DNA from: Minutocellus sp. GHC0000111
Lineage: Eukaryota
Assembly (NCBI GenBank): GCA_977018835.1
Contig: OZ361256.1
Coordinates: forward strand, 7,068,001-7,132,000
DNA length: 64,000 nt
Reading direction: 5' to 3'
Shown: one piece after another, positions 9,134-62,914 of the stretch
Layout of the letters: every line of letters starts with the position of its first letter
Position numbering within the stretch: position 1 is the stretch's first letter
Position numbers and translations under genes: made by a program
Notes under the pieces: generated by a model
Databases searched by the model: none
What the model was told of the DNA's origin: nothing
Seen by the model: only the letters and a program-made list of their open reading frames with translations

Positions 9134-9350
9134 AGTCGAGAACATGGTTACTACGAGCAGTTTAGAGGATTTAGAAGTGGACCTGAACGGCATACATGTT
9201 CTACGTAGACGTTTATAGGATCGACATAATCAGAAGATGAGAAGCGAAGAAAGTAGGATAAGCAAAGCCAGCCGCAAATAATTACTCATAGTGCCGTTCA
9301 GGTCCACTTCTAAATCCTCTAAACTGCTCGTAGTAACCATATTCTCGACT
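9134..9350. repeat. 59-bp inverted repeat (arms 9134-9192 and 9292-9350)
   Basis: agtcgagaa(c/t)atggttactacgagcag...cctgaacggca present on both strands, one mismatch. Confidence 0.9.
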
Positions 9351-24514: not shown

Positions 24515-25453
24515 ATGCCCGAATTGGTAGAGGTCGAACATTTTCGGCAGCTGCTGCTGCCTTTGGTTGGCGCCAGAAGTGGAGAGCTCCTCATTGAAAC
24601 CCCCTCGCCTACCCCTCCAAAGGGGTTTCCGAGCGAGGCAGAGTGGGACGATGTGAGGGAGTGTTCCGTGAAGAATGTACTCCGGAAAGGTAAATTGCTT
24701 CGCATCGAACTAAAGTGCAAGGACCGTGAGGAGAAGCATCTTTATTTGCATATGGGCATGACAGGGAGAATCTCTTGTCCAGGACGGGTGTTGAAACTGG
24801 AAAGTCTCAAAGGTGATGATGTGTACCCTCCCCCACACACTCACCTCATCTTGAAGTCGAATAAGCACGAGGTTGCGTTTTCAGATCCTCGTCGATTTGG
24901 TAAGGTTGTGCTGCGTACTGCGACAGATGATGAGTTTGCAGAGCTTGCCCCGGATGCATTGACCGAGAAGACTGATTTCGATGGGATTGTCGAAAATACT
25001 ACAGCGATCAAAAAGCTGCTACTGGATCAGAGAGCGATTGTGAGTGGTGTAGGAAATTGGATATGTGATGAGGCATTGTATCAGGCCGAGATACATCCCG
25101 ACCAGACAATGTTGACTTCGTCGGAGCGCGATGTCATCGTTGAAAAATTGAATTTTATCATCAAAACTGCAGTTTCTCGGATGGAAGATGAATTGCCTGC
25201 AGATTGGTTGTTTCACAGGCGGTGGGATAAAAGAAAGGGCAGCGGGGTCAAGGATGCCAAAGGGCGATCAGTGAAATGGATAACATCAGCAGGACGAACC
25301 TCGGCAATATGCCCAAGCATACAAAAGCTTCAGCCAAGGAAGCAAGCGGCGAAGAGAAAGGCGCCAGCAAAAAGTCGCACTAGTGGTGACGAATCAACAG
25401 AAAAGACAGAGAAGACAGGAAATCAACGGAAGAAGCGATCAAAGACAAAATAG
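24515..25453 (+). CDS. FPG: Formamidopyrimidine-DNA glycosylase (Fpg/MutM, plant/fungal type lacking Zn finger)
   Basis: MPELVEVE, RKGK, HMGMTG, DPRRFG, LLDQ..VSGVGNWICDE. Confidence 0.95.
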   Translation: MPELVEVEHFRQLLLPLVGARSGELLIETPSPTPPKGFPSEAEWDDVRECSVKNVLRKGKLLRIELKCKDREEKHLYLHMGMTGRISCPGRVLKLESLKGDDVYPPPHTHLILKSNKHEVAFSDPRRFGKVVLRTATDDEFAELAPDALTEKTDFDGIVENTTAIKKLLLDQRAIVSGVGNWICDEALYQAEIHPDQTMLTSSERDVIVEKLNFIIKTAVSRMEDELPADWLFHRRWDKRKGSGVKDAKGRSVKWITSAGRTSAICPSIQKLQPRKQAAKRKAPAKSRTSGDESTEKTEKTGNQRKKRSKTK

Positions 25454-28505: not shown

Positions 28506-29440
28506 GGACGCTTCTCGGCCAGAAGCAAGCGGCCAGCACTCAGCAACTCACCTCTCAGACCAATGCAGCGAACTCTGTGCTACCAGACCTGCTCGCCCAA
28601 CCGGAGTAACACCACCGGCGGGGTAGCCGTCAAGTGGCATGGATTTCGGAGGTGGGCCATCTCAAGCTTACTGCGATCGCCAAAGGGATCTAGTAAGGAG
28701 GTGGAGTGAGAAATCGAATATCACATTATAATCGAAATTCGATTCAAGACTTCGAGGGCAAGCAGAAGCTGCTCAGCGCCTCGACTCTTGGCAACCACAT
28801 GCATGTGCAAGTGCATGCTAAAGTCCCGTAGATCGATCTATAGACGTAGATCAGACTTGTCTACGATTGCTAACGGTGTGTTAGAACCTCCAAGTCGACA
28901 GAGCAAACACTACAGAAGTGAAGAAAGACAAGCAGAGGTGTAGAGCGGGTTATGGGAACCACAATAGAGAAAATCAGCCGGGGTTTTCGTCCGTCTGCCG
29001 TACGTAAGTAGACACGTCAGTGGCAATGGCTCGAATGGCTCATCTTGTGAAGCATCGTTGCAACGGCATCCTCTGAGGACCGTTAGCTAAGTCATAGGGC
29101 TAGTTAGCCAAGTACAATTGCATATGTCGATAGATCTATCAGCTCCGACTGACAGCATTGCGCCGCCGGCGAAGTTTCTGTAGTTCATCAGCCCATGGTC
29201 TCTCTACCAGAGCATGGAATGCAATGATGTGATGGAAACGAGCAATTATGGGTGAGATGCAAACGACATCCGTCTGGGACGGCCATTCCTGACACACATG
29301 CTCCACCGCAATGTGTTGAGCTGCCAACAGCTCTTCGGCACGTCAGCATCACTCATGTGATCCGATCGACACCAGGGGGGCGATCAACTCCTCCCTCTCA
29401 CTCATGTCGCAGCAGTGTCCACTTGCCCGAGCGCCGATCA

Positions 29441-29932
29441 ACATCAGCTCGCACTCGTTTGATAGCAGTGGTCCTTCCTGCCTGCTTTGCCGAGCGCACG
29501 CCCTGCGGCGCACTCCAACTCGGCCTCGAGCCCACGCCCTGCGGCGCAGTCAAACTCGCAGAGTTGCGCCACCAAAGCGCATCACAAACTCGCGAGGAGT
29601 AGATTTACGTGCTCCCCAGCACGGTGATCGACATGGCCTATCTCCCGCCCTGTAGCGGTCGGTCGGAGTTCCATTGCGGCATCTCAACGACACGGTAATG
29701 CGGTGCATCAAAGTGCCAATAAAAGACATCGGAACGAACACACAAAAGATGCGCAAAAGATGTGCTCACACAAGATGCGATGGGTCGGATGAACTAATTC
29801 GAATCAGCCGGGACCAACCAGTGACGTACCAGTCGACATGCACCAGCCAAAGCAAGATGTAATCCGTTCCAACACATCCAATCACCGGCACAAAGCAAAG
29901 ATATCGCACTACTCTCTCTAATTCGATAACTA
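29441..29932. repeat. Direct repeat copy 1 (about 0.49 kb), LTR-like; may extend left to about 29125
   Basis: Near-identical to 34300-34792 (two short indels, five substitutions). Confidence 0.95.
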
Positions 29933-29935
29933 ATC

Positions 29936-32900
29936 TGTTGATACCGTGGGATACGTACGTACGTATACATACGTACGGTACGTACGGTGATCAGACCACT
30001 GACTCAGTGCCCTCTCCTGACCGTTGATCCATGGGCCAACGACATCTCCGATGGCCCATTTTTCATCTACGTAGGTCCTATTAACCTCTACTAGCTATAT
30101 CTATCTAGCTTAGCTTTAGGACCTCTTAGCAGACCTATGTGACACATCTTTTCCACCCGTGCTCGCCCCATTTCGGTTCGCACCTCACCGGTTTGTCTTG
30201 GTTGGGTTCTCACTCGTCACGCAAGAAAAACCGACACATCTTCAATCGGCCAAAACTACCGTTTCTTTCGACAATATTGGAACGACGATCCAATCCCTTC
30301 CCCGAAAGTCCTGACCAGATCGACCCATCCAATCGATCACACTTCTCTGGATCGAACCTTCTGTCGATCACACGTCTCGCAGCAACACCGCCGTGCTGCC
30401 TGTCTTCGCTGACTGAAACACCAGCATGAATCCCGACGCAGTTTTTGGCCAACCTCTCGGCGCAGCGCCGATTCTCCCCACCAAGTTAATCACACGTGTG
30501 AATGACCCAGGACAACCTCCCCAACGCGAGCGTGTTGCCAAAGCGCTCAAGGAACTTCAACAAGCGGCGGTCAGCATTCCAGCAGGGGGTGCAACATGTG
30601 ACCACAACCTCGGCCATTTGGGCCTCGTCGTCAGCGATGCCGAATGCACCACCAAAAGCAACGGCCGACCACATGTGCCTCCGGCAAATCCTGGCCCCAG
30701 CCCCACCATTCCCGCCGTGGCCAATCTAGACCAACGCGATCGTGCAATCCGGGGACATCACATCGAAAAGGGCCACTGCAACTTGTGCGAGCAAGTCAAC
30801 ACGGCGCTCAAGAGTCTCCTCGACTCGATCGACGCCGTCTACATCAATCATCTCGAAGATGACATGCTCGGTTTCCAGCCAGTCACCATCCGCCAAATCA
30901 TCGACAGCGTTACCGATCGCTACTTGAAATTCAACGAGACTCAGAAGGAGGAGTTAGAGAAGCAGCTCGAGAAGCAGCACGACGGGGGACCCATCGACAC
31001 CCATATCGCCACATTCAACAAAGTCTTCAAGGCGTTTGAAACGGCCGGCGAACCCTTCACCAACAAGCAAAAGGTCTCCAAGTTCTGCCGCTCCGTGCGC
31101 AGGTTCTCATTGGCAAAGAAGGCATGCGAGGACTGGGACGACAGACCGGAGGCCGAACGCACGTGGGCCAACGTGCAGTCGGACTTCCGCGATTGGCATG
31201 ACAAGAAGATGGCCAACACCACCACCGAAGCGGCAGGATGTCATGGCGCGAATTTGGCCTCATCGGCCTCGGACGATCCATTTCTTTCTCGAGCCGATCT
31301 CCTTTTGGCTGATGCCACCGAAGCCCTCAAGACCAACCAAGCCATGATGGCGAACCTCGCCAAAAAGAGCAACGAGAAGGACGACACCATTGCCAAACTT
31401 CGCCAAGAAACAGCTTCACTCAAGGCCGAGAACCGCGTTCTGCGTGAGGGACGCAACCACACTGGTGGCAGTGGAGGCTACCGCGGCGGTGGCCAGCAGA
31501 ACGGCGCCGGCCACTTCCCAGGCCAAGGTCCTAACCTCAACCGCCAGGAGAAGAGGGAACTGCAGTCGATCCTCCCCAGAGGCCATTGTTGCCACACGTG
31601 CGGCTATTCGTCCAACCACCCCAGCTTTGAATGCACTTGCAAAGGGCCCAACCACGTTGATGACGCCACCAAGCACAATCCTTGCGGTGGCAGCTCGCGT
31701 CGTAACTGAGCGGGAGGGACGGTGGATGTTAATCAGCACAAAATAGAGGACAGCATGTCTGAATCCACCTCCTCCCCGCCTTCGTTAGCTTTCTTACGTC
31801 AAAAAGCAAACCTCCAACTCAAGAGCCAATCGTCCTCGCAGCAGATGCTGGAACGACGGGACATTTTGTCCAGAAGCCCCAACACCTGTCGTGCGATGGC
31901 CCTGTTTTCAACGTCCAACAGACAGCAATTCCTATCAGCGTCACCCTTCCGGACAATGGCACAATGACGAACACCCACGAGGCCACGCTTCGCCTCCCTG
32001 GGGTTTCCCCATCGGCTAGCAAGGCCTGTGTTTTCAATGACATGGCATCATCGCTCCTATCGATTGGGCAGCTGTGTGACGATGGATGCATTGCCACTTT
32101 CGACAAGGATTCGGTAGTCATCGCCAAGGACAATGCCGTCATTTTGCAAGGTAAACGAGACCCCTCAACGAAATTGTGGATGGCAGATCTTAATTGCTCG
32201 CCCACCATGTCGCCGCTCCCCGGCCCCAACGTCATCCAACATGCTGCCAACGCCGCAATTGCCCAGGAGACGGTTCCGGAACGTGTAGCCTTTTTGCATT
32301 GGTGCGCTGGCAGTCCTCAGCTATCTACCTGGTGCAAAGCAATCGATGCGGGATTTTATAGATCTTGGCCAGGCCTCACATCAAAGCTTGTACGTAAGCA
32401 CATGCCACAGTCGACACCGATGATTAAAGGTCACTTAGACCAGCAGCGCAAGAACATCAGGTCGACCAAGCCCAAACGGTCGATGGCTACGCCAAAATCT
32501 CTCCCTGGGGTGGACGAAACCGAGCAGGATCTCCACCCGGCACAACACCAACAGCGCACCAACTGTGTCTTTGCTGATTGTCATGACATAACGGGCCAGA
32601 TCTTCTCAGATCAGCCCGGCCGTTTCTTGGCATCGTCTATTTCTGGCCACCAGTGCACAATGGTCGTCTGTGACTGTGACTCCAACAGCATCTTGGCCGA
32701 ACCAATGAAAAGCCGATCGGGAACGGAAATGCGCCGAGCGTGCCAAACTATTTTCGAACACCTCTCCAAGCGAGGATTTCGCCCAAAATTGCAACGATTG
32801 GATGATGAAGTGAGTCGAGAGCTGAAGGAGTTCATGGAAGAAAAGGATGTAGATTTTCAATTGACCCCAACGCACTCCCACCGCCGAAATGCGGCCGAAC

Positions 32901-34299
32901 GAGCCATTCGAACCTTTAAGAATCATTTCATTGCGATTCTCTGTGGTGCCGATCCAGACTTTCCCCTCATCTTGTGGGACAAATTGCTGGAGCAGGCGGT
33001 AGTGACCCTCAATTTCCTGAGAGCGTCCCGAGTCAACCCTCGACTTTCAGCGCACGAGCAACTCAATGGCGGCTTTGATTTCAATCGCACGCCTCTGGGC
33101 CCCCTCGGATGCAAGGTCATCTTTCACGAGATGCCCTCGGCACGCGGCTCTTGGTCCCCGCATGGCGTTGATGGGCACTGTGTCGGTCCAGCCATGGAGC
33201 ACTGCCGGTGTTACAAGGTTTGGATTGAGGAAACTCGGGCGGAACGCACTGGTAACACACTCGTCTGGCTCCCCAAAATGATTCCGGTGCCCAAAACGTC
33301 GTCGGCCGATGCAGCAACAGTCGCAGCTCATGAACTCCTGCACGCTCTACAGAATCCACATCCAGCGGCACCCCTTGCTCCCCTTCGAGACGAGCATCGT
33401 CAAGCTTTAGAAAAGCTCTCCGAGATTTTCAACAGCGTGACCCCAGCAGAATCTGCCACCTCCGCCTCTGATGAGACGATGCAGACAACCGCAGCTCCGA
33501 GGGTGCTGGAGAACGATGACGACTCCCAACGATTCCGCCTCGGTGCCATCGTCGCCAAAGTGTTTGGAGATCGCAATTGCAAGGGAAGAGTCGTTGCATT
33601 TGACAAGAAGCATGAGTGCTGCAAAATCAAACACGAGGACGACGACGTAGAAGAGATGAACGAGACTGAAGCAGGCCGTCACCTTGTCTCCAACCCCAAC
33701 GCTCCGTTACCTCAGCCCCAGCAACCTCCGAGGGTGGCAAAATCCTCCACACATGATGCAGCCACCACTAAAAGCCGTGGATCACGTCGATCCAACGCGC
33801 CACCTCGCTCGTCAGTTTCTTCCAACTGCTGCAATCCTTTGGCTGCAGCAGACGAGCCCAACGGCGACGATGATGATAATCATGACGACGATGCAACCGT
33901 CGTAACATCCAATCAAAGTTCCAATGCCCCCACCTCCCGTCGGCAACGTAAACGCAAGTCTCCAACGATCGACACCACTCCAACATTGCCAGCTCCAGCA
34001 AAATCGACAAGCAAGTCCAAACCATCGACCGCCAAACCACCTCGACGACGATCATGCCGTCAGCGAGGGCACATTCCACATCGGAACCCTCCCCCACGGC
34101 CATCATCTCGTCGTAGTGCCCACCACGTGGCCAACATGGCAGCTTTCTCGCCTTTACCAAACCTCCAACACTTTGCTAACGCCGTCGTCCATCCCGACAC
34201 TGGTGCAATGCTTGAATGCCGCGACCTCCTCAAAACGAACATGAGGGACCAATTCATTCAAGCAAACATCGATGAAATTGGACGGCTAACAGACGGCCG
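29936..34299 (+). mobile_element. Ty1/copia (CoDi-like) LTR retrotransposon, truncated before RT
   Basis: TGTTGATACC LTR-like start; gag 30426-31709 (GHLGLV, C-terminal C..C...H....C); protease ADAGTTGHF about 31841; integrase SDQPGRF, RLDDE, HRRNAAERAIRTFKNH; ends at ANAVVHPDTG..EIGRL; no RT/RNase H. Confidence 0.92.
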
Positions 34300-34792
34300 A
34301 CATCAGCTCGCACTCGTTTGATAGCAGTGGTCCTTCCTGCCTGCTTTGCCGAGCGCACGCCCTGCGGCGCACTCCAACTCGGCCTCGAGCCCACGCCCTG
34401 CGGCGCAGTCAAACTCGGCATTTATTACTCGCAGAGTTGCGCCACCAAAGCGCATCACAAACTCGCGAGGAGTAGATTTACGTGCTCCCCAGCACGGTGA
34501 TCGACATGGCCTATCTCCCGCCCTGTAGCGGTCGGTCGGAGTTCCATTGCGGCATCTCAACGACACGGTGATGCGGTGCATCAAAGTGCCAATAAAAGAC
34601 ATCGGAACGAACACAAAAGATGTGCTCACACAAGATGCGATGGGTCGGATGAACTAATTCGAATCAGCCGGGACCAACCAGTGACGTACCAGTCGACATG
34701 CACCAGCCAAAGCAAGATGTAATCCGTTCCAACACATCCAATCACCGGCACAAAGCAAAGATGTCGTGCTGCTCTCTCTAATTCGATAACTA
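34300..34792. repeat. Direct repeat copy 2
   Basis: Matches 29441-29932. Confidence 0.95.
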
Positions 34793-36231
34793 TTAACGAG
34801 ACTTCGGGAAGATTCCTGACGGACGTGACAAGACAGCATTCTCGGAGGAGCAACTGGAGCCTCATACAGATTCTCTGCTGGGGTACTTTCAATTACTCGG
34901 GGAACAAAGACATTGTTGGGGTTGGTGGCATCAGCAGGAGCTGCTTTAGCCGTCATCGCAGCGGTAGTCTTGGTCTTTTTCCTCACGATATGTTCCTCCC
35001 TATCCTCCTTTTCAGCACGACTGTCATTGTATGCTGATAGACTGCCACTGCTGCGCTTGCCCTGCAGCTTCTTCGCTGCCTCTCTCTGCTCTCTTCTCTT
35101 CTCTCTCAACTCTTGCTTCAGTATCATCTTCCTCATCTCGCATGAAGTTATGGCATACGACACCATCTGCGTCTTGGCGACGGGGGCCTCCACATCGTTG
35201 TTCTCATCTTGATCATCATAAGACATAGCCTGAATAATCATGGTCCGGGCAGTTTCGAAGGATTCAGTGCCAAGGTCCATGGCAAGCTGGGCTGATTCCT
35301 TGCCAAGCTCGAGGGCGGCGTGGGCGCCCTTCTTGGCGATCGGTGCCGCTACTTTGGCAGATTCCTTGCCAAGCTCGAGGGCGGCGTGGGCGCCCTTCTT
35401 GGCGATCGGTGCCGCTACTTTGGCAGATTCCTTGCCAAGCTCGAGGGCGGCGTGGGCGCCCTTCTTGGCGATCGGTGCCGCTACTTTGGCAGATTCCTTG
35501 CCAAGCTCGAGGGCGGCGTGGGCGCCCTTCTTGGCGATCGGCACGGAAAATGCTACGGCCTTCTCACTTGCTTTGTAGGTGGCGTGGGCGCCCTTCTTGG
35601 CAAGGGGGACAGCTACTTTGGCCGATTCCTTTCCAAGTTCAATTGCGACATGTGCGCCTTTTTCGCCGGCCTTCATAGCGACTTGCGCGCCCTTCTTGGC
35701 GATAGGGACGGAAAACGCCACAGCCTTTTCGGTGGCCTTGATGGTGACATCCTTGGTCTTTTGGACGGGTTCGCTCTGGGCCAGAGGGATGAAGACATTG
35801 TCGTTCGCGGCCGTTATCGGCATCATGGCAGCATCCGCCACGCATTTGGCTGCCGGAGCAACTGCCTTCTTGGTCTTTTTGACGGTATCGAAGCTGCCGA
35901 TGTGATTGGCGACGGGTCGGACGAAATTGGTGTTGCCAGCCCGCATGACATTTTCCTTGTCGAGTGCATTCTCGAAACGGTGAGCGGCAGCACCAACGTG
36001 GTCGGACGCAACCTTGAGGACGGCCCGGGTCTTCTGAATCCCGGTATCGGCATTTTTGGCGACGCCACCGAATTTTTGTGTCGATGGGGCCATGTAGACA
36101 TTGGCGCTGGCCGACGAGAGGCCACAAGGCATCGGCTTCGTGTCGGTATAGGCCGAGGCAGATGAGCGACGTGCCTTGTGCGGCCGGATGTTGGACTTCT
36201 TGGCGGTCGGTACCTCGTGGAGCAGCGTCAT
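34654..36231 (-). CDS. Ala/Lys-rich protein with 22-aa tandem repeats; C-terminus runs into the direct repeat
   Basis: Likely ATG 36231 (MTLLHEV); repeats KESAKVAAPIAKKGAHAALELG; last ~46 codons lie within 34654-34792. Confidence 0.7.
   Translation of the reverse strand: MTLLHEVPTAKKSNIRPHKARRSSASAYTDTKPMPCGLSSASANVYMAPSTQKFGGVAKNADTGIQKTRAVLKVASDHVGAAAHRFENALDKENVMRAGNTNFVRPVANHIGSFDTVKKTKKAVAPAAKCVADAAMMPITAANDNVFIPLAQSEPVQKTKDVTIKATEKAVAFSVPIAKKGAQVAMKAGEKGAHVAIELGKESAKVAVPLAKKGAHATYKASEKAVAFSVPIAKKGAHAALELGKESAKVAAPIAKKGAHAALELGKESAKVAAPIAKKGAHAALELGKESAKVAAPIAKKGAHAALELGKESAQLAMDLGTESFETARTMIIQAMSYDDQDENNDVEAPVAKTQMVSYAITSCEMRKMILKQELREKRREQREAAKKLQGKRSSGSLSAYNDSRAEKEDREEHIVRKKTKTTAAMTAKAAPADATNPNNVFVPRVIESTPAENLYEAPVAPPRMLSCHVRQESSRSLVNSYRIRESSTTSLLCAGDWMCWNGLHLALAGACRLVRHWLVPADSN
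35294..35541. repeat. 66-bp coding tandem repeat, about 3.8 near-perfect copies plus degenerate copies to about 35730
   Basis: gattccttgccaagctcgagggcggcgtggg... recurs at 35294, 35360, 35426, 35492. Confidence 0.95.
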
Positions 36232-36536
36232 GGTTGGCTTTGGCTGGATGGGTTGGTTTTGATTGTGAAAGTAGTGATGGCGCGAGGTCAAAAAATGAAA
36301 AAATGCATGTGCATTACTTTTTCTTAATCGAGCGAGTCGAGTGAGTCGAGTCGAGTCGAGTAAATCGAGCATAGAAAGCGAGGGCCGGGTTGTTTTGAGA
36401 ATATGCAAATACGAGTTCGTAATTCATGTTGCACTGTTGCACTGTCTCTAGAAGATCTACTACCGGTTACCATGGTAGATCTACCGGTACCTACATACAT
36501 GAAAAGAAAAGTACATGTAAAGCAGTCGCTAGCTAC

Positions 36537-36956
36537 TAGAGGAGCTGCCAAAATAAGGCGGTGCACTTTATAAGGCGGAGCTACTTGTCATCCGCCAACC
36601 CTGACTGCAGCCACTAGGGAATTTTCTAGTAGAAGCTAGCGCTACTAGTAGGTAACCACTACCAAAACGCTCATCTGCCCCCCTTCGAGGGAGGCGGGAC
36701 CAATATATTTTTGACGGGACCAAACCCATTTACTAGTAGTTTGTTAGCCGCCTTATTTCGTCACTCGGTCAGAGCTCGAGGCGGAGCCTCGAAATTTCTT
36801 TTCCCTCTGCTTGGCACCTTCTCGTCAAAACGATTTTTGGAGGCAGTTACCACACCTAGTACTTCAATTTACAAGAGTATTAGCTGGTTTCATTTACTTT
36901 TAGTCATCGAAAACCAACATCACCTCAACTTCCGCCTTATTTTGGCAACTCCTCTA
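36537..36956. mobile_element. MITE, about 420 bp, with 23-bp TIRs flanked by TA
   Basis: ta-gaggagctgccaaaataaggcgg (36537-36561) and ccgccttattttggcaactcctc-ta (36932-36956), one mismatch; internal taaggcgg/ccgcctta sub-repeats. Confidence 0.85.
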
Positions 36957-37050: not shown

Positions 37051-39060
37051 TCAATCGATCTCCATGTCATTGATGGCTCTGTTGAGGTCATATGGCAGAT
37101 TCTCGTCATTCGCCTCGTCGGTTTTGCTGCCGCCGTTTCCATTACTAGTACCGGTATTTTTCTCCAATCCCTCCTTCTTGAGCCTCCAAATCCTTCCACA
37201 CTCCTTCATGACCTCGGGCTGAGTTACGAACGAACCACGCTCTGCCACGAGCCTTTCTCGAACTGCCTTGGAATTTTGTTGAACAAACAGACTGAATCCA
37301 GTTGGAGCGCGTTTCTTCTTTGGCGTGTGACCAACAGTCTCGGTATCATTCTTGCTGCCCGGAACCTCAATCTCCATAAGTCTACCCTTGCAAGATCCAC
37401 AGCAGTGCTTGTTCGGATCGACACTACGGCTGTGTCTTTTGATGATGGATCCACACTCGGTATTTTGGCACTTCCAGGCAAACTTGAAGCGAATGACATA
37501 GTCGTGAGTCGTCGTTACCTCCACATCTCGAATCCTTCGCATGGAAAGGTTGGCCCATTTCTTAAACACCTTGCCATGCGGTGGTTTGTGCACACCGTCG
37601 ACCAGCCAACCTGCCGCGTGGCACATTTCGTGCAAGAGTGATGCCCTCAGTCTCTCGAGGTTGTCCAAAATCTTGGTACTAAGCTCAATTGTCGCGATGC
37701 GACGCATACTATCCGATGTGCCGATGCGTTTCAGTCGGGTGAGGCCGGCGGTCGTTTTCAACCGTTTTGACCACACCACTTCCACCGAAGAAAGTGATCC
37801 ATTGAACACCTTGGTATTGAACTCGGCAAAAGTCGATCTTGTATACTGCTCTCGCTTTCTAGCAAAGGTGGTGCGAGAAACGTCTTGGTACGATGTGACC
37901 GACTTTTTGTTCGTAGATTGCTTAGGCTTCGGCTTGGTCTTTTGTGTCTTTGGAGGTTGCGTCGGGGTTTTTTTCCTGCCCTTTGGAGCGGCATCGGCTG
38001 TATTAGCCTTGCTAATCTTCTTCTTTGTTGGACTGACAATCTCAACATCGTCATCACTGCTGCTACTGCCGTCACTACTGCTAGCGATACCATCCGAGAC
38101 CACAAAAGAATCCTCGAGATGCTCTGATGAGAAATCATCACCGCCAATGCTCTCACTTGTGGCGGAATTGATGTCTTCCTCTTCGTCGTCATCGCTGAGG
38201 ATAATGGCATCATCATCATCATCCTGTTCCTCCTCTTCCTTCGGCTTTGTGGCCTTGGACGTAGTACTTGTGGTAGGTGTAGCGAAGCTGCCAGCTGGCC
38301 CACTCCTCGCCTTATTGTCATAATCGGTATCACCATCCCCGTCACCATCGATCCACTCCTCCTCGATTGTGGTATCATTGTTGAATGAATCATCGTCGGA
38401 GGATGACAGGATGCTGTCGGAACGACGGCGCCAACCTGACGCTGACGCTATGTTCCGTCGAGCATTGCGACGCGGACGACGTGGCATGGCCACGGAAGAC
38501 GAGGAGGAAGCGGACGACACCGACACCGACACCGATGTTGATTTGTTGTCGTCGTTTAGATCGTCCGCGGGCTCGCCGTCATCATTGCTGCGAGTACTCG
38601 GCGAGAAAGATGTGTCCACAACCACCACATCGTCGTCGTCATCTTGATCGTCGTCGGGGTCGTCCGTCCGTTTGTTGTCGTTGGCTGTATCGTTGGTGAT
38701 GGTGCCAGTTTCGTCCTCGAATATCGGCTCGGCACACTCACCGACGCATCCCAGCACGGCACAACTTTCGTCGTGGTTCTGCGGCACTCGGAGTGAAATG
38801 GCCTTGCCACCGAGGATGGCCGGAAGCAGCGAGGGTATATTGGACGGCAACGTCTGTGATGGACCTGGGCTACAATTGCCGTTGCTCTTCTCCTCCTGGT
38901 TCGTCGCTGAAGGAGCTGCTGAGGAAGGAGCCGTACCTGCTGCTGCCGACCCGGCCTTCTTCTTATCGGCGGCCGCCAGAGCCCTCCATAACGTCCCGTA
39001 CTCGGAGAGATGGCCCTCGAAGCGCTCTCGAACGCTGCTGCCACTTGCTTGGTTCGTCAT
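37051..39060 (-). CDS. GCNA: GCNA/ACRC: acidic disordered region + SprT metalloprotease + Zn finger + HMG box
   Basis: WSKRLKTTAG, IELSTKI, LLHEMCH, PHGKVFKKW, C..C..RHSRS..C..C, FSLFVQQN...VMKECGRIW. Confidence 0.9.
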   Translation of the reverse strand: MTNQASGSSVRERFEGHLSEYGTLWRALAAADKKKAGSAAAGTAPSSAAPSATNQEEKSNGNCSPGPSQTLPSNIPSLLPAILGGKAISLRVPQNHDESCAVLGCVGECAEPIFEDETGTITNDTANDNKRTDDPDDDQDDDDDVVVVDTSFSPSTRSNDDGEPADDLNDDNKSTSVSVSVSSASSSSSVAMPRRPRRNARRNIASASGWRRRSDSILSSSDDDSFNNDTTIEEEWIDGDGDGDTDYDNKARSGPAGSFATPTTSTTSKATKPKEEEEQDDDDDAIILSDDDEEEDINSATSESIGGDDFSSEHLEDSFVVSDGIASSSDGSSSSDDDVEIVSPTKKKISKANTADAAPKGRKKTPTQPPKTQKTKPKPKQSTNKKSVTSYQDVSRTTFARKREQYTRSTFAEFNTKVFNGSLSSVEVVWSKRLKTTAGLTRLKRIGTSDSMRRIATIELSTKILDNLERLRASLLHEMCHAAGWLVDGVHKPPHGKVFKKWANLSMRRIRDVEVTTTHDYVIRFKFAWKCQNTECGSIIKRHSRSVDPNKHCCGSCKGRLMEIEVPGSKNDTETVGHTPKKKRAPTGFSLFVQQNSKAVRERLVAERGSFVTQPEVMKECGRIWRLKKEGLEKNTGTSNGNGGSKTDEANDENLPYDLNRAINDMEID

Positions 39061-39499
39061 GGTGGCAGCCGCCGAAAATAAAACGATCGAAAATAAAAAA
39101 TGATGCCGATGCGATGCGCGATGGATCTGGGCCGTCCGTCCGTCGTCACCGCGCCGCATCGCATCGCCGCATCGCTCGCTTGTGTCGCTCATATTTTCCG
39201 TTCAAAATTTCATCCGACCGTTTTAGCCCCGCGCCCGCCAAGGATTCACGGATGCATGAGATGTATGTTCTGCGAATGAACCAAGCATTTGCACCATTTG
39301 TTGCCTTCTATTAATAGTCGAACGCTGAGCCGTCTAGTCTAGCTAGCAACGTCTGGAAATTTGAGAGTCATCAACTGAATCAATCGACTCTTGGAAGTGG
39401 CGTCGCATCGGGTCACAAAGCAGACGCTTCAAACGCCGTGTGGAGAAGTGAAAATAAGTGAAAGTAGCCACAAGCAAGCGAAATAAGCCAAGTCCATCA

Positions 39500-40690
39500 A
39501 TGAGAATGCTATTCAGATCGGCCATCTTGATGGCCACTGGTGCTATAAGTTCGGTCGGTGGTGACGATATCGATCCACCACTACTAGCACTTGGTGCTGC
39601 TGATAAAGATGCCGCTAATGGCGCGATGAATCACCAAACTCACACCCTGACCGGCTTTCGTCTGAGTGATTTGGATGCCGAGTTCAAATCTCGTGGTATG
39701 GGCCGTCGACTCTTGCTGCCCGATCAAGATGGCAAAAACGTGGGCGATGATCAGTACATATCGACGATCGACGCCTTGGAGGGCGTCGACGATCTTCAGA
39801 CTGACTTCTTTGCTGCATTTGGGCGCAACTTCACTGAGGAGGAACTGAACGATGCCCTCGACGATGCCTATGTCCGTGCCACGGAAAACGACGGGGCCAA
39901 TCTTCGATTTGAATTCGACGAAGATCTTCTCCTGGAATTGGAGCGTCGACGAGCGTTGAAAGAGCAGGGTGGTGACGAAAACGCCATCGTCTTGGATCTG
40001 AATCCTACTACTTCTACTTTTGCATCTGATTCCCCAAGGAAAAGAAGTACCGGTAGGAGGCTGCAATCAGCGATCATTCGAGGTGGGACGGGAATGCTGG
40101 TGACACTGCAATCGCCTGGCTTTCCGGGAAATCCTGGACGTCGATCGGGCATCCATGGGCTGTTCTGGTGCGCCTCTCTTCGTGAAACGCGTCGAGCCGA
40201 CATTGAAACTCCCCTCAATCAGCGACTGACTCTCAAGAATTGCAAGACTGCCGACATACGTCAGATCGAGTGGACATACACGACGGATCTGGAACTGCTG
40301 GTATCACGCGTGGGAACATTTTTTCATTCCTTCTGCGCACGGACCAAGGATGGGCGGCAGGGACGTCTTCGTGAAAAGATTCGGATGAATCAGTGCGGTA
40401 CCAACATCAATAATACGCAGTCTTGGGAGCTCAATACCAACTACCAGTGGATATCATCTGCCGATGCTGGACTTTGTGTGACAACCAATCGTGGACAGAA
40501 GGGCCGGGGCAATCTCAAGCTTCGAACGTGTGTGGAATCGGACGATGTGGTGGAGAAATTCGATGCCGGACAGTTGTGGACTCTGTGTCGGACGGAGGGT
40601 ACCTGTGCTGTTGGGACTGGTTCCTTCGATAGAAGATTGCCGCTGCAATGCGACATCACGCAGAACTGCCGGCCGAGTGGGCGGAGATAG
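39500..40690 (+). CDS. Secreted protein with ricin-B (beta-trefoil) lectin-like C-terminus
   Basis: Signal peptide, RRL processing-like motifs, repeated Cys pairs with QSW/QLW motifs. Confidence 0.6.
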   Translation: MRMLFRSAILMATGAISSVGGDDIDPPLLALGAADKDAANGAMNHQTHTLTGFRLSDLDAEFKSRGMGRRLLLPDQDGKNVGDDQYISTIDALEGVDDLQTDFFAAFGRNFTEEELNDALDDAYVRATENDGANLRFEFDEDLLLELERRRALKEQGGDENAIVLDLNPTTSTFASDSPRKRSTGRRLQSAIIRGGTGMLVTLQSPGFPGNPGRRSGIHGLFWCASLRETRRADIETPLNQRLTLKNCKTADIRQIEWTYTTDLELLVSRVGTFFHSFCARTKDGRQGRLREKIRMNQCGTNINNTQSWELNTNYQWISSADAGLCVTTNRGQKGRGNLKLRTCVESDDVVEKFDAGQLWTLCRTEGTCAVGTGSFDRRLPLQCDITQNCRPSGRR

Positions 40691-42274: not shown

Positions 42275-42815
42275 AAGCTTCTAGCTAGGCACTGATGATT
42301 TTGTAGTAAATGTGTAATGTTGTTGAATGAGAATGAAATGCCGAGGTGACTGATGAGACCGACCTTGCCAAGCAAACAAACAAAAGAAGCTGTCAAAAAA
42401 CAAACAGTCAACTGGCTTTTAAAATGTATTTAGGTATCCTATAGGATTCCTACCGTCCCTACATAACATATTCTTGTAGAGGAAATCCCACGCTCGGGCG
42501 ATTTTAAGTAGAATCAGAATTCATGAATCGAATCAGTTTTTGCAACCGGAAATCGCGCAAAAGCTTCGCTTCAATCAGGATTGATTGTGCTTCCGGATTC
42601 CGGCGTTCCGGCCATACACCCCGTAACCAACGTAAAGGAACTTCCACCAAACCGTGCCGCTCACGATCACATGCAAGAAGATTTTGAGGCAAAGCGCCCA
42701 CAAGAGAAGACGAGAAAGAATAATAACACGGAATCGAATCAATCAAAAGCAATAACCCTTTCACCTTGACCGCCCGGGTGGTTCAGTTTGCACCGAGAGA
42801 GACGTGTGGGACCGA

Positions 42816-45800
42816 ATGGAGGAGGACACCGGTGGCCGGCACGAGCCCCCCGGGGACACCGGTGCCGATGCCGATGCCGCAGAGGTGAACGTCGGCAGAT
42901 CGGGGCCACCGGGCGGAACCGAAGCCGCCACCGCCAGAGGTTTCGGTGCGGGAGGAGGTGGAAGTGGAGGGGGTGGGTCTGGACGTACTCGTGGAGCGCC
43001 TACGGATGATGACCGGCCTCCTCCGCAGGACGCCCCGGCTGGAGAGATCGGTAGAGTGGACGGTGGCGGTCATCCACGATCAGCGCCGCCGCATGATCTG
43101 CCAACCGACGCGGACGGAGGCGGCGGCGGCAAGATTCAGTCCGTCTTGAATGCCGCCGCGGTAGTGGACTTCAACGAGGAATCGCCGGAGCATCGGCAAC
43201 GGGCTGTGTCTGGTCCTGACGACGCGGCGGGAGGTGTCGCTGGCGCCGATGAGGGTCGACTGGGGGCGGAACTAAGTACCGGCAGCAACAACCATGTGGC
43301 TGCTGTAGATCGGCCACGGGACGCCCAACCCCCATCGGTTCACGATTACAGTGTGACCGATGATAGGCCTACTTCATCAACGGCCTCAGCATCCGAGCCA
43401 GCGTTGCGTGCCAAGAAATCACCCAGACCAAATCCCAGCGACGTTGGTCCTACGGAGGGTGATTACTACAACTACGAGGATGAAGAGGGCGAGGAGGACG
43501 AGATGGAGCATCAGCAGCAGCACGACACGGACGACGACAACGAAGTACAGATTGTCAATACGAACGCTGCCTGTGATTGTGACAAACGCAAGACTAGGAA
43601 GGGAAAGAAGAAGAAGAGTGGTGCAACAAGTGGCGGTGGTGCTACTCGTAATAGTGGTAGTGGTGCCACCGGCTCCATCCGATCCACCCGCAGATCCGAT
43701 CTAAATAATCGTCTACAGCAGGTAGGGGTCGGATCAAGAGTTGGTATCTTTTGGCCGCTGGACAATTTGCACTATCCCGCCACGATCATTGCGACGCACG
43801 GGCGATGGCCCTATACATATACCTTCCTATATGATGATGGGGAGCAAGAATCTTTCGATTTGAGCAAGCATCAACAGTTCCAGATCCTCCACGATGAAGT
43901 GCCCAAGGCCGCCCTTGATGCCATTGCTACCGCTAGCCTTCGCGAAGGTGGCGATCAGAATGGCGGTGACAATTCTCCCATCGCCGCTCAACGTACAAGA
44001 AGAAGGACAACAAGAGCAAGTGGTGAAGATGATACCGCCGAGGTTGAAGAGCAGGGGAAAGACTGGGTCTGCCCCACGTGCAAGAAGACCAATCCGTACC
44101 AGAAGAAGCTTTGTCAGTGCCCGTCGACACGCAAGAAGGGAAATGGAAAGATAAAGAAGCTGTGTGCGATTCCTGATTGTTCGAAACAGTCGCAAGGACC
44201 AACATCTAATTCAATGTGTCAGCGCCACTTTTCCCTCTCTAACGATCGAAGGGATGGGGACGGAGATGCTGGTGTCCCCGCTGCAGAAAAGGAGTCGTCA
44301 AAGAAGAGAGCTCAGAAGGCCCCTGATCGCTTCGATGGGCAGGAAATCAGCAAGTCCGCCAGTTTTGACGGCGGTGATCACAAGTCCGAAGCCGAGAAGT
44401 CCAAACGATCCAAATCTGCCTTTCGAAGCAACAATAAGAACGAGCTCTCTGTTGACGAGATCTCGAATTTGAGGTCGCGGCAGCCCAAGAAGAAGTCTTC
44501 CAGTACGAGGGCGAGTATTAGTCGAGGTGCGCGAGAAGACGAAAGTAGCGGGACTGATAGCGACACTGAGAAAAAAGAATATGATGAAGCTTGGATTTGT
44601 CTTGGTTGTGGTACTGAAAATGCTCCAGAAAGGAAGAGGTGCTCTCCGCCGTGTGGGAGATGGAGAGGCGGTAGCAGAAATGTAGCGACAAGCCCCGCAA
44701 AGAAGAAGGATCCTTACGCCGGCCTGAAGCGACGAGATTCACCACGTAATCCATCAAAGAATCAGTGTGGTAAATGTGATGCTTGTATGGTCGACGACTG
44801 TGGCGAATGCAGGCATTGCCTTGATATGAAGAAGTTTGGCGGTCCATGGAAAATCCGGGAAAAATGCATGAATCGCCCACCCTGCAAAAATCCTCCCTCC
44901 ATGTCCTCTGTCAAGAAGTCAAAGTCGAGGGCACCGGTATCTCCCTTTGAGCGTACTTCGAGAGCTGGTCGTCCCCCAAGGGCCAAGCCGGTTCCTCTCG
45001 CTCCGCCAGCTGGAAGTATTGCGTTGGATCCATTGAAGCTGGCAGATGCTGTTGATGTCCCGAGGTCCACTGAGAGCTGCGACTGGTCCTTTGATGAAAA
45101 CTCTCGCGTACTTCTCGCCAAGTTCAATCTCGGGAGTAGTTCCAGTATCGATCCTGTGCACAAGGAAACACTCCTCAAAATGATGGAGAGGGATGATATT
45201 ACCGTTGTAAGCGAGGGGCTAGTCGGCGACCTGAATCGAACGCTCTGGGATATGCATTATGTCTCAAATCTGGTCGGCGACAAGCCCTATCACAAGGTCC
45301 GTCGCTTCGAACGCGAGCTGGTAGAATTATCCTCCGATAAGCCAGAGAGCGAAAAGGATCAGGCCGAGGAAAAGATTGCGGGCGGCGACAGTACTGATTC
45401 CGCTGCAGCAGCGGCGACGCCAGCAGAATCCGTTCAAGTCGAAGATGCTGCCAAATCAAGGGGGGCTTCAGCGTCTGCGGCAGAGGAATCGTCATCAGTG
45501 GACCCAAGACAGCAGTTCCATGTCCGGCATAAGGAGGTGGACAAGAATCTGTCTATGAAGATATCGGATTATTGCAAATACCTGGACAAGCGTTCCACTG
45601 CGCTGCAATCTATTGCTGAAAAGAGATCGAAGAAAGGAGTCGATCTAGTGAATCCAGCTTCCAGGGAAGATTATCTCATCGGCCGTCCGACCGATGTGGA
45701 AGGGCAGAACTCAGAATCCTTTACCTTTCTTACCCATGATGGCAAGGAGGAGACCATCAACGTCGTCGACGAAGTCCTGTACTTGATCGACTATGATATG

Positions 45801-48800
45801 GTGAAGTTGCTGCCCCCACTGTACGAGGACTTTGTGAATAAATTCAAGCTCCCCGATTGCCTACCCGGAGGTCAGCATTGCATGATGAATGCAGTCAACG
45901 TCAACGGTAGACCTTTCATGGGGCCAAATTTCTGTGAGTACTACTACGTTCTAATGTCACTTTCGTTGCACTAAATATGTATGAACTTTATCGGGTATGT
46001 TGTGCTGCCCTGAAATGCCTAATCGTCTCTAATCTATCGTTTCTTCTTGCCATTTACTGTTCCTTGATCGGTAGACGTAACTCCACCAGGTTAGTATTGA
46101 GATCATCAAATTACTTTGCTGGGAATTTGCTTTATTACTTTGCAGTTGTCGTTTCGCCCCCGCTAACTAATGCCCACTTCATTTTCTGTACCTACATCCA
46201 TTCATCTACAGCCTCGTTCACCCACTTCCATCAAGATGGCCATGGTACGGTGGACAGTGGCCACCAGTGTCTTTCTGGTTACAACGAAGTCGTCATGCTC
46301 CGACGAATGCCCGAGGAACACAAGCAGCGAGCTCTGTACATCCTCAACGATCAGGCCAAGAAGAAGAAACGATCCAAGTACGACGGTCTGTACGGTTTGC
46401 CCCATGGTGATGGCCTCGGTGCTAAGCCAGATTGGCCAACTACAGACGCTATCGAGGAGTGCCGAAGAATGAACTACTGCCCATCGGTATTCGTCCTCAA
46501 GCCCGGTCAGTTTGTTCACATCAACAAAGGTCGACTCCATGCCTTTCGAAAGTTGTCGCCGACGGCCCTCCCACCCAATGACTGTCATAGACAGCTACGT
46601 CTCGATACTATTGCGAGCGATAACCTTGGTTCCATGGAACGTCTTTGCGTCTCTGTTGCTTGGGATTGGATGGTAAGTTCTGTCTTTTTTATTGTTTGTA
46701 GGTGCATTTCATCTTGTTCTCGCTCGCCTTGGATCGTACTTGGATGGAACACAAACTCTCGATGGGAATTTCTAATCTGTTGTTTGTTCTCTCGTTGCAC
46801 TCTGTTCTTATTTTAAACAGTACAAGGGATGTACCGAGAAAGGCATCAGTGAAGAGATATTCTCCACCCTCCACTGTGCTCGTCTACTTCGTGGTCATCA
46901 ATTGCAATCTCTTGCGATTCCCGAATTATCAGTTCTGCACACAGCGATCCAGCTTGTTGCTGAATATGAGCAGAACAATGCTTCTCCTGACACCAAACGC
47001 GGAATCTTGCCTTTCCTAGTAGACAGCAATGGATCTCAACCCGATTCCGAGGTGGTAAAAGAGAAGCTAAAGGGTATTGCGCCCGCAATGGAATACATTA
47101 TCGATCGGCATGAGCGTGCCTTCAAGACTGCGAAGCAGGAGCTTGAGCTCCAGGCGTCTGAGGAAGGTTGTCGAATCACCTTGGATATTGCTGGCCTGCC
47201 AGATGCATCGGAAAACCCCGAAAGTTATGCTTTGGACCCGTAAGTTTTGTGTGCCTTTTACAGCCTTTGGTTTGTCTGAGCTCTGCATAATCGAGGTGTA
47301 TTTTCACCTCTAATTTTCTTTTGTTTCCTCATTTATTCGCATTCATGTCTCTTTTCCCCTTCGTGTAGCTACGGGAATGGCGACTTCCATTGCCGCTTGT
47401 GCCACGAAGAGCTATCGAATATCTACATGCATTGCGATGGTTGCGAAAATATCCTCAACAAGGATTGCAACATCTGCGTCAGCTGCCACGGAGACGGCAA
47501 GTACAAAGAATATGCCCAGATGCATCCCACGAAGCCCACAAAAAACAGCAGCGTAAACCACATGGGCGAAAACCAGAGAGATGTTCGAGGTAACTTTTGC
47601 CCTTGCAAAAAGGGCAAAGCATGCGCTCGATGCGGCTACTGCTCGGGCTGTTCGTGCAAATGCCATCAATGTTTCACTATGCATATGCGCTTCTCCAGCA
47701 TGGATGAAATGATTGCCTTGAGAGAGCGCGTCCGCAATGTAGTCGGAACCTGTTCCATACCTGATATCCTTTTGGGTTCACCTGATGCTGCTGCGTCGAA
47801 GAAAGCGGTGTCGGATTCATTTTCAGCGCCGGCCCCGGCTGCGGCTTCCGCTCTACCTTCATTGAAGGAGCATGAGGTATCCACCATTGATCAGTCAAAC
47901 GTGCAAGTTATCTCTGGTGATCAGATATGGAGCAGAGAGAAGCGTGCCAAGAAGAGGAATCGCGATAGGCAATCATCCTCTAGCATCGACGAAGAGAAGA
48001 AGGAAGATTCAGTCTTTGGCGACGATACCTTCGATGCCTCAGAAGAAAAGGAACTGAATGTGCGAGGCCGACAGAAACGGAGCAAATCGGAATCGAGCGA
48101 GGAATCCTTGTATGATCCGGCCTCTGATGCCGCCGGTGTCCTCAAGGTAGATGAAGATGCAATGGAGCTGGGCGAGGGGATAAAGCCACGCAGGCTTCGA
48201 GCGATAAGAAAGCGCAGTCGCAAAGACGAAGATTTAGACATTGGCAACGACAAAGCAATTGCCGAAGTTGTGCAAGAGTCTGAGTATGCTGCTGGTCGCA
48301 ATAGAGTGGCCAAGTCTGCAAGGAAAGCTTCGGCAATGAAGCTGGAGGACGAAGATGAAAGCGATGGGCGGAAAATCATCGATGTTGAGGATGGAAACTC
48401 GGCGACGCTCCATCGTGCGATCGGCTCTCGGCACGCTGATGAGGAGACAGGTATGTCACCCTCACCACGCAAGAAAAAGAAGACAGCGCGGAGCAAGAAA
48501 GACAATATGGGAGATGCTAGTGACGGAGATTGGGTCTGTCATCTTTGCAGCACCTCGAATGATTCCGAAAGAAAGAGATGCACGGAATGCAGAGGGTGGA
48601 AAGGAGGCAAAAGACCTTTATACGCTGGTTCTCCGGAAGCCTCAATAAAGCGAGACAAGAAGCAATCTTCTATTTCTACTGGTAAGAAGAAGTCATCAGC
48701 TCCAAAGAAATCATCGCCATCACGCAAATCATCAAGCCCGAGCAAAAGCAAAAGCACGACGAGACACGACAAAGCAGAAAGATCTTGTTCTGTATTGCGG

Positions 48801-58992: not shown

Positions 58993-59838
58993 TGTTTATT
59001 TCAATGTCGCCAATCAAATCAATTTTCCTGCAAAGGTACAGTTATTCCGTGATGGTAGGTTCGGTGCCAGCAACAGAGAGCAATAGAATGCAAAGATATC
59101 GGCGGCTTCGGCTTCGGCTTTTCCAGTCACTGCTGATGGATGATGAGTTCTTCGCCGATCCTCAAGATACGCCACAAACGAGATTAATAGACGTGCGAGA
59201 AAACGCAGCAAATTGGACTGAACCGGCACCGCTACAAAGTTGAAGTCGAAGAATGCAAGCGATTGCCTCTCTCGTGGAGAAATTGGGAGAGCAATAACAA
59301 TCAGATGTGCTGCTGCTCTTGGCTCAAGCTCCAAAATAATGATTTGATGATAAATATGCCCTTCGCAAATTAAGAGGGCGCTGTCCATAACTTTTAGGAA
59401 GCCCCCAAAATGCGTGTTTTGTGCCGTTTTTTCTTCGCACCATCGCCAAAGTTAGCACTCCAACGTGACAATGGGCTCCTCATCGAAGGCCGCCGCTCTC
59501 CACAGTGGCGAAGAGTCATCGACGTTCCTTTCAGCATTAAGTCGGAAATCCCTCCAGGAACACTTGGTTCAGAGGAACTTCGATGAATCAACTCTCCCTC
59601 AGAAACATAGCAGTCGACGCACACGTCATCGTCGGATCGACCGAAATTAGTCTCGGCCGACGCATAACCAGCATTGGTGGTGCTGGTGGGAAGATATCTT
59701 GAAGTTTTGCTGTTGGGAGGTAAGGGGATATTTGTTTGGGGTATTTTTGCACGTCTCCCTCATTTGGGGTTCTTTTTGTAAGGTTCTCATCGAAAAGCGC
59801 ATCTTGCGCCAGAACCGACACAAAACAAAAAAAACAAC

Positions 59839-61434
59839 CATGGAAACGTCACGTGCTAACGCCAAGGAGGCAATCCTCTCACTCTTGCTCTCATTCCCAG
59901 ACGACGTCAGATGTACTTACTACACTATTGATGAGCTTGTCCGTATCTTGATGCGCGGTGGCGCATCGCCGAGCTTAGAGATCTCTCTTGTTCGATCATC
60001 TCTTCAACACGTCCCAACACGACACGAGGTCAACATCCAACGACGACGTCCAGAGAAAATGTCAGGCCTTGACGTTGCAAAGCCCTTCTACCGCTTCTCC
60101 AGAATAGCCGATAACGCCAGCCCACGCTCTCAACGCAATGGCAAGCGATCACTGCCGACCATGCCTGAAAATTGCTTCCAGGACGATGAAAAGCATGGGC
60201 CCCATCTCAACGCGACACTGAAATGTTGTTCCGACAAGAGTTCTTCGGGCGGTCGGTCATCTACTCCCACCGCCAACGCTACCGATCGTCCCAACATCAC
60301 CGGCGTGCAGCTCAACGGCAAAAGAATTGTGGTTGAGATGAAGCAGCTGCATGATTTTGTACAGAATCTCCACCGATCGTGCGGCAATCTGCATCTCTCG
60401 GCCGAGCCAGTTCGGCGTGGATTCGGCGTTACATTTGAATGGCGATGCGATAGATGCAACCAACCTTTTTCTTTTTGCACTTGGATCGGCCAGAGGTCAG
60501 AAGTTGTGTGCCCCGGCAGAAAGCATTCTAGAAGTCAGGCTGGAATGAACTTGGAGCTGATGGAGGCAGCGGAAGATGAGGCCATGTGCGCAAGTCGCTT
60601 CATGAATTTCTGCACGAAGGCCGACATCGTCCATCCGACCGAAAAGAATGCCTTGGAGTGATGGCAAGCTCGATGAGGAATGGAGCTCGGGGAATCAATT
60701 CGATGGCGACATATTGGAGATTAGTGACGACACGATTCGCAAGATGACGCTTGAAATAACCAAGAGAATCAACAAGAATACTGCCGACTCCAACTGCAAG
60801 AAGGAATCTACCACCGGCGTCGAACAGCTCAACGGGATGGTGACGAAAGTTCACGATGGGGAAAAGGCCGAATTTGACTGCTTCAGACGCCTACCCAAAT
60901 GCAACAAGTAGAGCCGCTGGCCACAAGTCACTGGGTACGGAATTCAATGAGCGAGTTCTTGGAAAGTTGGGATCGAGGGATTCTCCTACCCGAAAAGATG
61001 GATTCGATGCAATTGACCGGAAGCTCGAGGGCGACCTTGCGCGTAAGCGCACCGATGAGTACAAAAAGAGCAAGAGCGACAGCAAGCGCCTTCGAGCAGC
61101 CTTGCGAAACAGAAGCGAGAAAGACGACAAGGACTATGTGTACAAGAAGAACAGGGCCCTAGCTGCTGGTAAGGCGAAACCAGCAAAGCCTGGCCGCAAG
61201 AAGAAGATTGACCAGCAGTGTCAGAAATGCAAGCAGCTTGGCCACACTCGGGCTGAATGTCAATGCGACGATGCTGACGACGTTGTCGTTTACGCCGGAA
61301 AGAAGCGCAGAAGCCCAGGCAGCAACAAGAAATCTGCAAGAAATAATAAGAAAGCTAAGACAAACTTCGGTGTATCGGCAAATGATGTTAGCTCTTGGAT
61401 GCCGGCGATACTGAGAGAAAATGGCAGCTTGTAA
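59839..61434 (+). pseudogene. Kolobok transposase remnant
   Basis: GFGVTFEWRCDRC N-region, STTGVEQLNGMVTK..GKR (catalytic-E-like), C-terminal CQKCKQLGHTRAEC knuckle; three frames, first two catalytic Asp motifs not visible. Confidence 0.7.
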
Positions 61435-61538
61435 ACACGTGTAAAATATTTTATCACTGTAAATAAAAATGGATTTATTGTGTGCTGTTACTCACGTGCT
61501 ACGCACATTCTTGTTATCTACATGTGTTGAGGTAATGA

Positions 61539-62768: not shown

Positions 62769-62914
62769 CGTAATGAAGAGGGGGCAGAGCGGCGATTCTC
62801 ATGGTGGGGTCGAGTTTTTGTCATGCTTCGCTCGTCATAAGAAATAAGAATAAGGGGGATTAAAAACGGGGAAAATTATGGACAGCGCCCTCTTAATTTC
62901 CTTTCCACGAAACA

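Follow-up and report, generated by a model that had tools for sequence, protein, structure and literature searches.

The present analysis concerns a window of 64,000 nt from the diatom Minutocellus sp. GHC0000111 (GCA_977018835.1, contig OZ361256.1, positions 7,068,001-7,132,000 of the forward strand; all positions below are numbered within this window), in which a truncated Copia retrotransposon is enclosed by two copies of a 490-bp direct repeat (Table 1), and the loss of TpA dinucleotides from these sequences. The element retains a 5' long terminal repeat (LTR) and pol up to the start of the reverse transcriptase (RT); RT itself, RNase H, and the 3' LTR are missing. Its pol product shares 46-51% identity with proteins of Phaeodactylum and Fragilaria, and sister copies carry RVT_2, indicating a Copia-type element cut before the RT. 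The domains of the pol fragment are presumed to be protease, integrase, and Tudor, named partly from homologs. The Tudor domain (PF21743) lies at 33540-33670 (pol residues 527-569) after the integrase region and is also present in relatives; chromatin-guided insertion via this domain is a guess. Protein clusters, metagenome loci, and sequencing-run contigs (X1, X2, X5, X8, and X9) supplied the copies for comparison. Figures from the run contigs refer to the 40 listed of 65 differences for the repeat and, for the element in four runs, to the 40 listed of 105 differences. Contigs of four runs place the element ends at 29936 and 30131, and intact copies extend beyond 34300 into the RT. The identity of the 490-bp repeat as an LTR pair was rejected because the element ends map to these positions, and an LTR start at 29405 was rejected because that position is only a contig end. 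The depth in X5 is ~8,000 or more in the element and ~600-800 in most of the repeat; thus, the repeat is not at the copy number of the element. Depth steps and paralog contigs identify the repeat as a dispersed family, and the similarity of the left copy to its paralogs starts near 29385, although no further copy was found in the 64-kb window or among 80 related metagenome loci. An 80-bp part of the repeat (29780-29860) is approximately tenfold deeper than the rest in X1, X2, and X5, which marks it as a separate higher-copy motif.

Table 1. Features of the direct repeat and the enclosed Copia element, in window coordinates
Feature	Position	Strand	Remarks
Left repeat copy	29441-29932	+	Non-coding member of a small dispersed family; keeps 15 TA
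Right repeat copy	34300-34792	+	Fused to truncated pol; 12 TA in aligned columns; four A>G on + strand
Site 1	29696-29697	.	TA in left copy, TG at 34569-70; TA in X2, X5, and right-type X8 contig, so TG derived
Site 2	29902-29903	.	TA in left copy, TG at 34762-3; CA in X1 and X8 paralogs (three states)
Site 3	29907-29908	.	CA in left copy, TG at 34767-8; TA presumed ancestral, in none of the listed differences
Site 4	29910-29911	.	TA in left copy, TG at 34770-1; X8 tally leaves no G (weak)
Left-only 13 nt	~29741-29753	+	11-nt form in X2/X5; one X8 contig without it
Right-only 14 nt	~34413-34426	+	Also in X2 and X8; likely lost from left copy
5' LTR	29936-30131	+	TG...CA, 196 bp; 23 TA retained, of which 11 in RTAY; none of the 40 of 105 listed differences restores TA here
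gag-like open reading frame	30426-31709	+	427 aa; 8.6 TA/kb; without Pfam gag hit, placed by position before pol and C-terminal Cys/His cluster
pol fragment	31964-34299	+	Protease-integrase-Tudor (presumed), cut just before RT; 21/23 polarised Tyr changed to Cys/His
pol/right-repeat junction	34296-34300	+	Intact elements run on into RT here; 5-nt match to 29433-29437, 4 nt out of register

Pairwise alignment of the two repeat copies over 479 columns yielded exactly five substitutions (29697A/34570G, 29903A/34763G, 29907C/34767T, 29908A/34768G, and 29911A/34771G), in agreement with the original prediction, which had also placed four of them within 9 bp and all of them at TA-type steps. Both of these statements are borne out; the substitutions make up four dinucleotide sites, three of them TA/TG and one CA/TG. 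Two indels, absent from that prediction, also separate the copies. A TA-versus-TG/CA pattern in either direction would be matched by 21.6% of the transitions that the repeat could undergo; with all changes taken as transitions, the observed pattern has a chance of ~5e-4 when five differences are counted and of 2e-3 when four sites are. Differences occur at 4 of 16 TA-type sites (29907-8 being taken as TA) and at 0 of 447 other columns (Fisher p ~1e-6). Three of the four dinucleotide sites fall inside 9 bp, for which the post hoc probability is 0.007. On the minus strand, a 584-codon open reading frame (ORF) without a Pfam hit (34654-36408) extends ~46 codons into the right repeat copy and contains a 66-bp tandem repeat at 35224-35673.

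The enclosed element carries the same signature. Read from the window towards the run contigs, C>T and G>A together make up 31 of the 40 listed differences, and a TA is restored by 27 of the 31. An intact relative used as the query gave 80 metagenome loci, including the related Copia loci L001, L008, and L012, whereas the window's own pol as the query gave 0 relatives among 19 pattern matches because its peptide patterns carried the Cys/His changes. Compared with L001 (76% identical), 105 TA correspond to 35 CA, 30 TG, and 2 CG, with 16 kept and 22 other outcomes, both products thus being present; in the reverse direction, 8 of 404 CA/TG became TA. At the protein level, the window has Cys at 6 of 8 mostly-Tyr columns of 118 outgroup proteins, two of the six being 99-100% conserved. 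The polarised Tyr losses of the window pol comprise 13 Cys and 8 His, and 32 of 33 changes are compatible with TA loss. In the 15 listed members of a 113-member protein cluster, which may come from more than one assembly, the 391 Tyr cells include 103 Y>C, 71 Y>H, and 2 Y>R. When frameshifted stretches of these 15 copies were masked, 282 of 358 polarised changes fitted the pattern and 19 were reverse. At 30645-30646, CA is found in most copies of four runs, TG in the window, and TA apparently in a minority of X2; the dominant, amplified lineage seems to descend from a mutated copy.

Two copies alone give no direction, and CG can also yield CA and TG; therefore, a process in the manner of the repeat-induced point mutation (RIP) of fungi, with C>T changes turning CA/TG into TA, or CpG decay from CG has to be weighed. 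Diatoms possess RID-related DNMT4 genes (PMC9998398), and one CG>TG change is seen at 30138. However, conserved Tyr residues are lost rather than gained, and the outgroup polarity contradicts such changes: TpA is lost, without the C>T at CpA/TpG and TpA gain of RIP. CpG is likewise undepleted (rho CG 0.98), and in comparison with L001 the changes CG>TG/CA number 38 versus 56 in reverse, meaning that CpG is not lost. At the repeat itself, position 29902 is without C in X2 (0/3,244 depth) and X5 (0/3,006 depth), and C occurs in the X1 and X8 paralogs. These considerations leave the RIP and CpG-decay readings with next to no credibility. The derivation from TpA that had been proposed, TA>TG/CA rather than CG decay, is upheld by contig paralogs and by element and sister copies, which polarise alike. 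L008 and L012 show strong CpG depletion (rho 0.24) yet nearly intact Tyr; this is a different decay process in other hosts.

The further repeat copies whose collection had been suggested for polarising the sites proved informative at two of them. Position 29697 is A in close copies of X2 (depth 895) and X5 (598), as well as in an X8 contig having the 13-nt gap of the right copy, which makes 34570G derived. Positions 29902-3 occur as TA, TG, and CA, and 29583-4 within the repeat are likewise three-state (TA, TG, CA). At 29837, 29841, and 29859, other copies read TA and both window copies share CA or TG. This combination of shared and unshared hits indicates that some hits predate the split of the copies and others postdate it. 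The listed differences do not include 29903, 29907, 29908, and 29911; the C>T tallies of X1/X8 and the A>G tally of X8 are accounted for by other differences, and at 29907-8 and 29911 the X1/X8 paralogs appear, weakly and near contig ends, to match the left copy.

A sequencing or assembly artefact, consisting of miscalls at modified TpA in repeats, was also considered. The source bases are contig-level calls, and the runs containing the window sequence share only 0.5-0.6 of sampled words. Nevertheless, independent miscalls of T and A predict ~66 CG and 2 were seen, individual sites carry all of TA, TG, and CA in the contigs of other runs (29583-4 and 30645-6), and the Illumina RNA run X9, from another study, is without the TA-restoring letter at 4 of 27 covered differences. 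The host gene ATG9 is moreover clean: compared with its closest homolog, 26 of 27 Tyr are kept and none is Cys or His, ATG9 being the sole host gene polarised and the named homologs topping its match list being diatom proteins. An artefact is therefore very improbable.

Editing during retrotransposition, at the RNA or cDNA stage by an ADAR- or APOBEC-like activity and built up over cycles, would agree with the fact that the most heavily hit DNA is a retrotransposon and with the right repeat copy, in which 4 of 4 hits lie on one strand (P = 0.125, not significant) and three fall within 9 bp. Such editing would leave one-strand changes in retroelements only. By contrast, both strands are hit and are intermixed within one copy (runs test z = -1.1, not significant), and among the 15 copies Cys and His both occur at 28 of 49 Tyr sites. 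The copies are star-like, not tree-like, and derived states are not shared between them in excess (99 of 500 permutations reach the observed value); the hits on different copies were thus independent, pointing to mutation that followed insertion. A DNA transposon is also hit. This Mutator-like element at 59367-62899 carries terminal inverted repeats of 28 nt and, besides a broken transposase, has a second ORF on the minus strand. Among its transposase paralogs, 10 of 12 differences fit and four are Cys/His swaps, and two other relatives have Tyr at three Cys/His-swap positions each. Reverse transcription is thus not required, and editing during retrotransposition is highly unlikely. The second ORF of the Mutator-like element has a host-like TA content (34/kb) and may be less affected. 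Probable DDE transposase remains at 925-3500, with a weak DDE_3 hit (E 0.008), 2 RTAY in 1001-3000, and 1 Tyr in 242 aa, are likely a third hit element. Two short inverted-repeat elements resembling miniature inverted-repeat transposable elements lie at 9134-9350 and 36537-36956, and the 59-nt arms of the former have a single mismatch, CA versus TA. The host genes in the window encode an Fpg-type DNA glycosylase (24515-25453), a SprT-like protein (37051-39192), a ricin-type lectin-domain protein (39458-40690), and a CXXC zinc-finger protein (42804-45974).

The hits have a sequence context. On the strand of the changed A, 53 of 101 TAY sites (Y, pyrimidine) and 12 of 61 TAR sites (R, purine) are hit (p = 3e-5). 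At asymmetric sites, the TAY strand is the one hit in 21 of 25 cases against L001 and in 13 of 15 listed contig differences, two sets that overlap. RTAY occurs 3 times in 4.2 kb of the element body versus 11-13 times per kb in host DNA. The LTR (29936-30131) has a TA density of 117/kb with GTAC repeats, and the dominant X5 contig matches 29984-30129, including 13 TA, without a difference. With 0 of 13 TA changed in the LTR versus at least 27 of 81 in the body (p = 0.017), the LTR seems to be spared from hits.

The signature, its direction and two-strandedness, the TAY preference, the independence of the copies, the hits in the Mutator-like element, and the one unaffected host gene are observed, and we consider it probable that they reflect a mutator converting TpA to TpG or CpA in the transposon DNA of this diatom, likely a DNA adenine deaminase that acts on chromosomal copies once they have inserted. 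In such a process, deamination of A would yield inosine, which replication would fix as G; the first hit would destroy the palindromic TA, hence the rarity of CG; and targeting would follow silenced or foreign chromatin rather than reverse transcription. Judged from the sequence, our best guess for the enzyme is a candidate DNA adenine deaminase making inosine at T-A-Y. A fuller version, in which a chromatin-guided adenine deaminase with TAY preference would act in processive short patches on genomic dsDNA, destroying transposon Tyr codons copy by copy and skipping LTR promoters, and would be homologous to a system of the rhizarian alga Bigelowiella natans, is speculative and rather doubtful.

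The T of TpA may instead be the modified base, by TET/JBP-type oxidation or another mark of silenced repeats, mispairing with G and giving T>C in the context R-T-A. In dinoflagellates, transposon silencing has been linked to 5-hydroxymethyluracil (PMC11572971). As TpA is palindromic, TAY on one strand is RTA on the other, which suits modification of T equally. TadA, however, has a preference for a 5' T/U. Such a preference fits adenosine deaminases, as stated for ADAR in the text of the B. natans report (10.64898/2026.01.13.699255), whose authors favour an ADAT2-like deaminase as the candidate. Modification of T, the foremost competing mechanism, is accordingly regarded as unlikely.

Several points weigh against the adenine deaminase explanation. 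Sequence alone cannot separate a modified A from a modified T. The five differing bases of the repeat are contig-level calls, and 29907-8 and 29911 are hardly polarised (25 of the 65 differences being unlisted). Among the polarised changes of the 15 cluster members, 76 of 358 do not fit, and the T>A and I>V classes are unspecific in that they can arise by non-TA transitions. DNA 29 bp upstream and 12 bp downstream of the spared, TA-rich LTR is hit. In the neighbouring gene, the one TA of the 66-bp tandem repeat survives in 3 of 3 full copies. None of the 80 related metagenome loci has the window pattern, with at most 3 Cys at 45 Tyr columns versus 14 Cys and 9 His at 27 in the window, although short-read contigs collapse copies and absence among these loci is no evidence of absence. 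The effect was not seen in the five named Phaeodactylum and Fragilaria proteins either. Either it is therefore no general trait of diatoms, or the collapsing of copies in assemblies hides it. Every sequence that is hit is multi-copy, and the 66-bp tandem repeat is too short to judge whether duplication is a trigger.

Regarding the direct repeat, the original prediction held that each copy, once duplicated, went on being mutated independently. The occurrence of hits before and after the split agrees with it, but independent continuation at this locus does not emerge, since the right copy accounts for four of the five events. The only left-copy event (29907 C) seems to be shared with X1 and X8 paralogs (weak, near contig ends). 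The repeat pair is a weak post-duplication clock because of this imbalance and because two sites are barely polarised, and alone it adds little beyond the evidence from the copy family. The two ends resemble different paralog types, one on the left and one on the right, so the copies may predate their joining: X2 and X8 hold a paralog running on past the start point of the Copia LTR of the window (past 29935), and X5 holds a repeat copy joined to the right flank of the window. We lean slightly towards the model with the fewest assumptions, an origin of the direct repeat by repair of a break in a resident copy from a paralog already carrying the Copia insertion. The broken resident copy would have been extended on the Copia-carrying paralog and rejoined near the short match at 34296-34300, and the five differences would then date from paralog divergence, not necessarily from after local juxtaposition. 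Products of recombination mediated by transposable elements are known in diatoms (PMC2806351). A local duplication of the repeat, after which both copies mutated independently, is a tentative but quite conceivable alternative: 34570G sits on a haplotype that reads TA in X8, both window copies share TG/CA at 29837, 29841, and 29859 where others have TA, and X2 and X5 contigs cross 29441 unbroken, indicating that no pol-repeat junction is present there. The two indels between the copies, the paralog-like left and right ends described above, and the single left event, seemingly shared with paralogs, speak against local duplication. An empty allele in X1 (contigs ending at 29405 and 34795) was dropped as a candidate, as it consisted of contig ends only.

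If the mutator is real, it would represent a second kind of RIP-like genome defence, one that opposes the usual AT mutation bias, and a process with a single measurement so far, in a rhizarian alga, would thereby be extended to diatoms and transposons. Should the enzyme prove to be a DNA adenine deaminase, engineered adenine base editors would have a counterpart in nature, and if it is homologous to the B. natans system, the defence would be old and SAR-wide (stramenopiles, alveolates, and Rhizaria). The TAY preference and the spared LTR provide testable handles for finding the enzyme. LTR or repeat divergence would be unusable as a clock in such genomes, and Tyr>Cys/His recoding would hide transposons from domain searches.

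Among known systems, the element itself resembles the diatom Ty1/copia (CoDi) elements in the similarity of its pol to diatom proteins and the RVT_2 of its relatives (PMC2806351), and differs from them in that the window copy has no RT, RNase H, or 3' LTR. The APOBEC editing of LTR retrotransposons shares with the present case a deaminase-type hypermutation of retroelements, whereas it converts C to U on one cDNA strand during reverse transcription (PMC4866542); here, both strands, A:T pairs, and DNA transposons are affected. The RIP of ascomycetes is similar in that dinucleotide-specific transitions on two strands wreck transposon copies and spare neighbouring genes; in contrast, RIP makes TpA from CpA/TpG via cytosine chemistry, and here TpA is consumed. 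RIP is also tied to duplication and the sexual cycle. The closest likeness is found in B. natans, for which de novo TpA>TpG/CpA changes in integrated DNA of nucleocytoplasmic large DNA viruses (NCLDV) as well as virophages, with a de novo rate raised ~1000-fold in a subset of lines, are reported by Mettrop et al. (bioRxiv 10.64898/2026.01.13.699255); an ADAT2-like enzyme is the candidate proposed by the authors. Both cases involve local A:T>G:C transitions confined to TpA, giving TpG and CpA, in foreign or mobile genomic DNA, and three features of the B. natans type are present here: A>G/T>C at TpA on both strands, with Copia and Mutator hit and ATG9 spared. The hosts differ, a rhizarian there and a diatom (stramenopile) here, and in B. 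natans the NCLDV region is single-copy and transposon targeting was derived from dinucleotide counts, whereas here multi-copy transposons were polarised copy by copy. The TAY preference and the spared LTR are absent from the consulted text of that report, the supplements of which may bear on flanking context. No diatom report of TpA hypermutation was found in the literature searched, in which subscription journals are thinly covered, or by a term search of a preprint on diatom transposable elements (10.1101/2025.10.24.684338). The TA steps of this diatom transposon were likely rewritten by a transposon-directed DNA mutator, a kind for which one unrelated alga has so far provided the only report.

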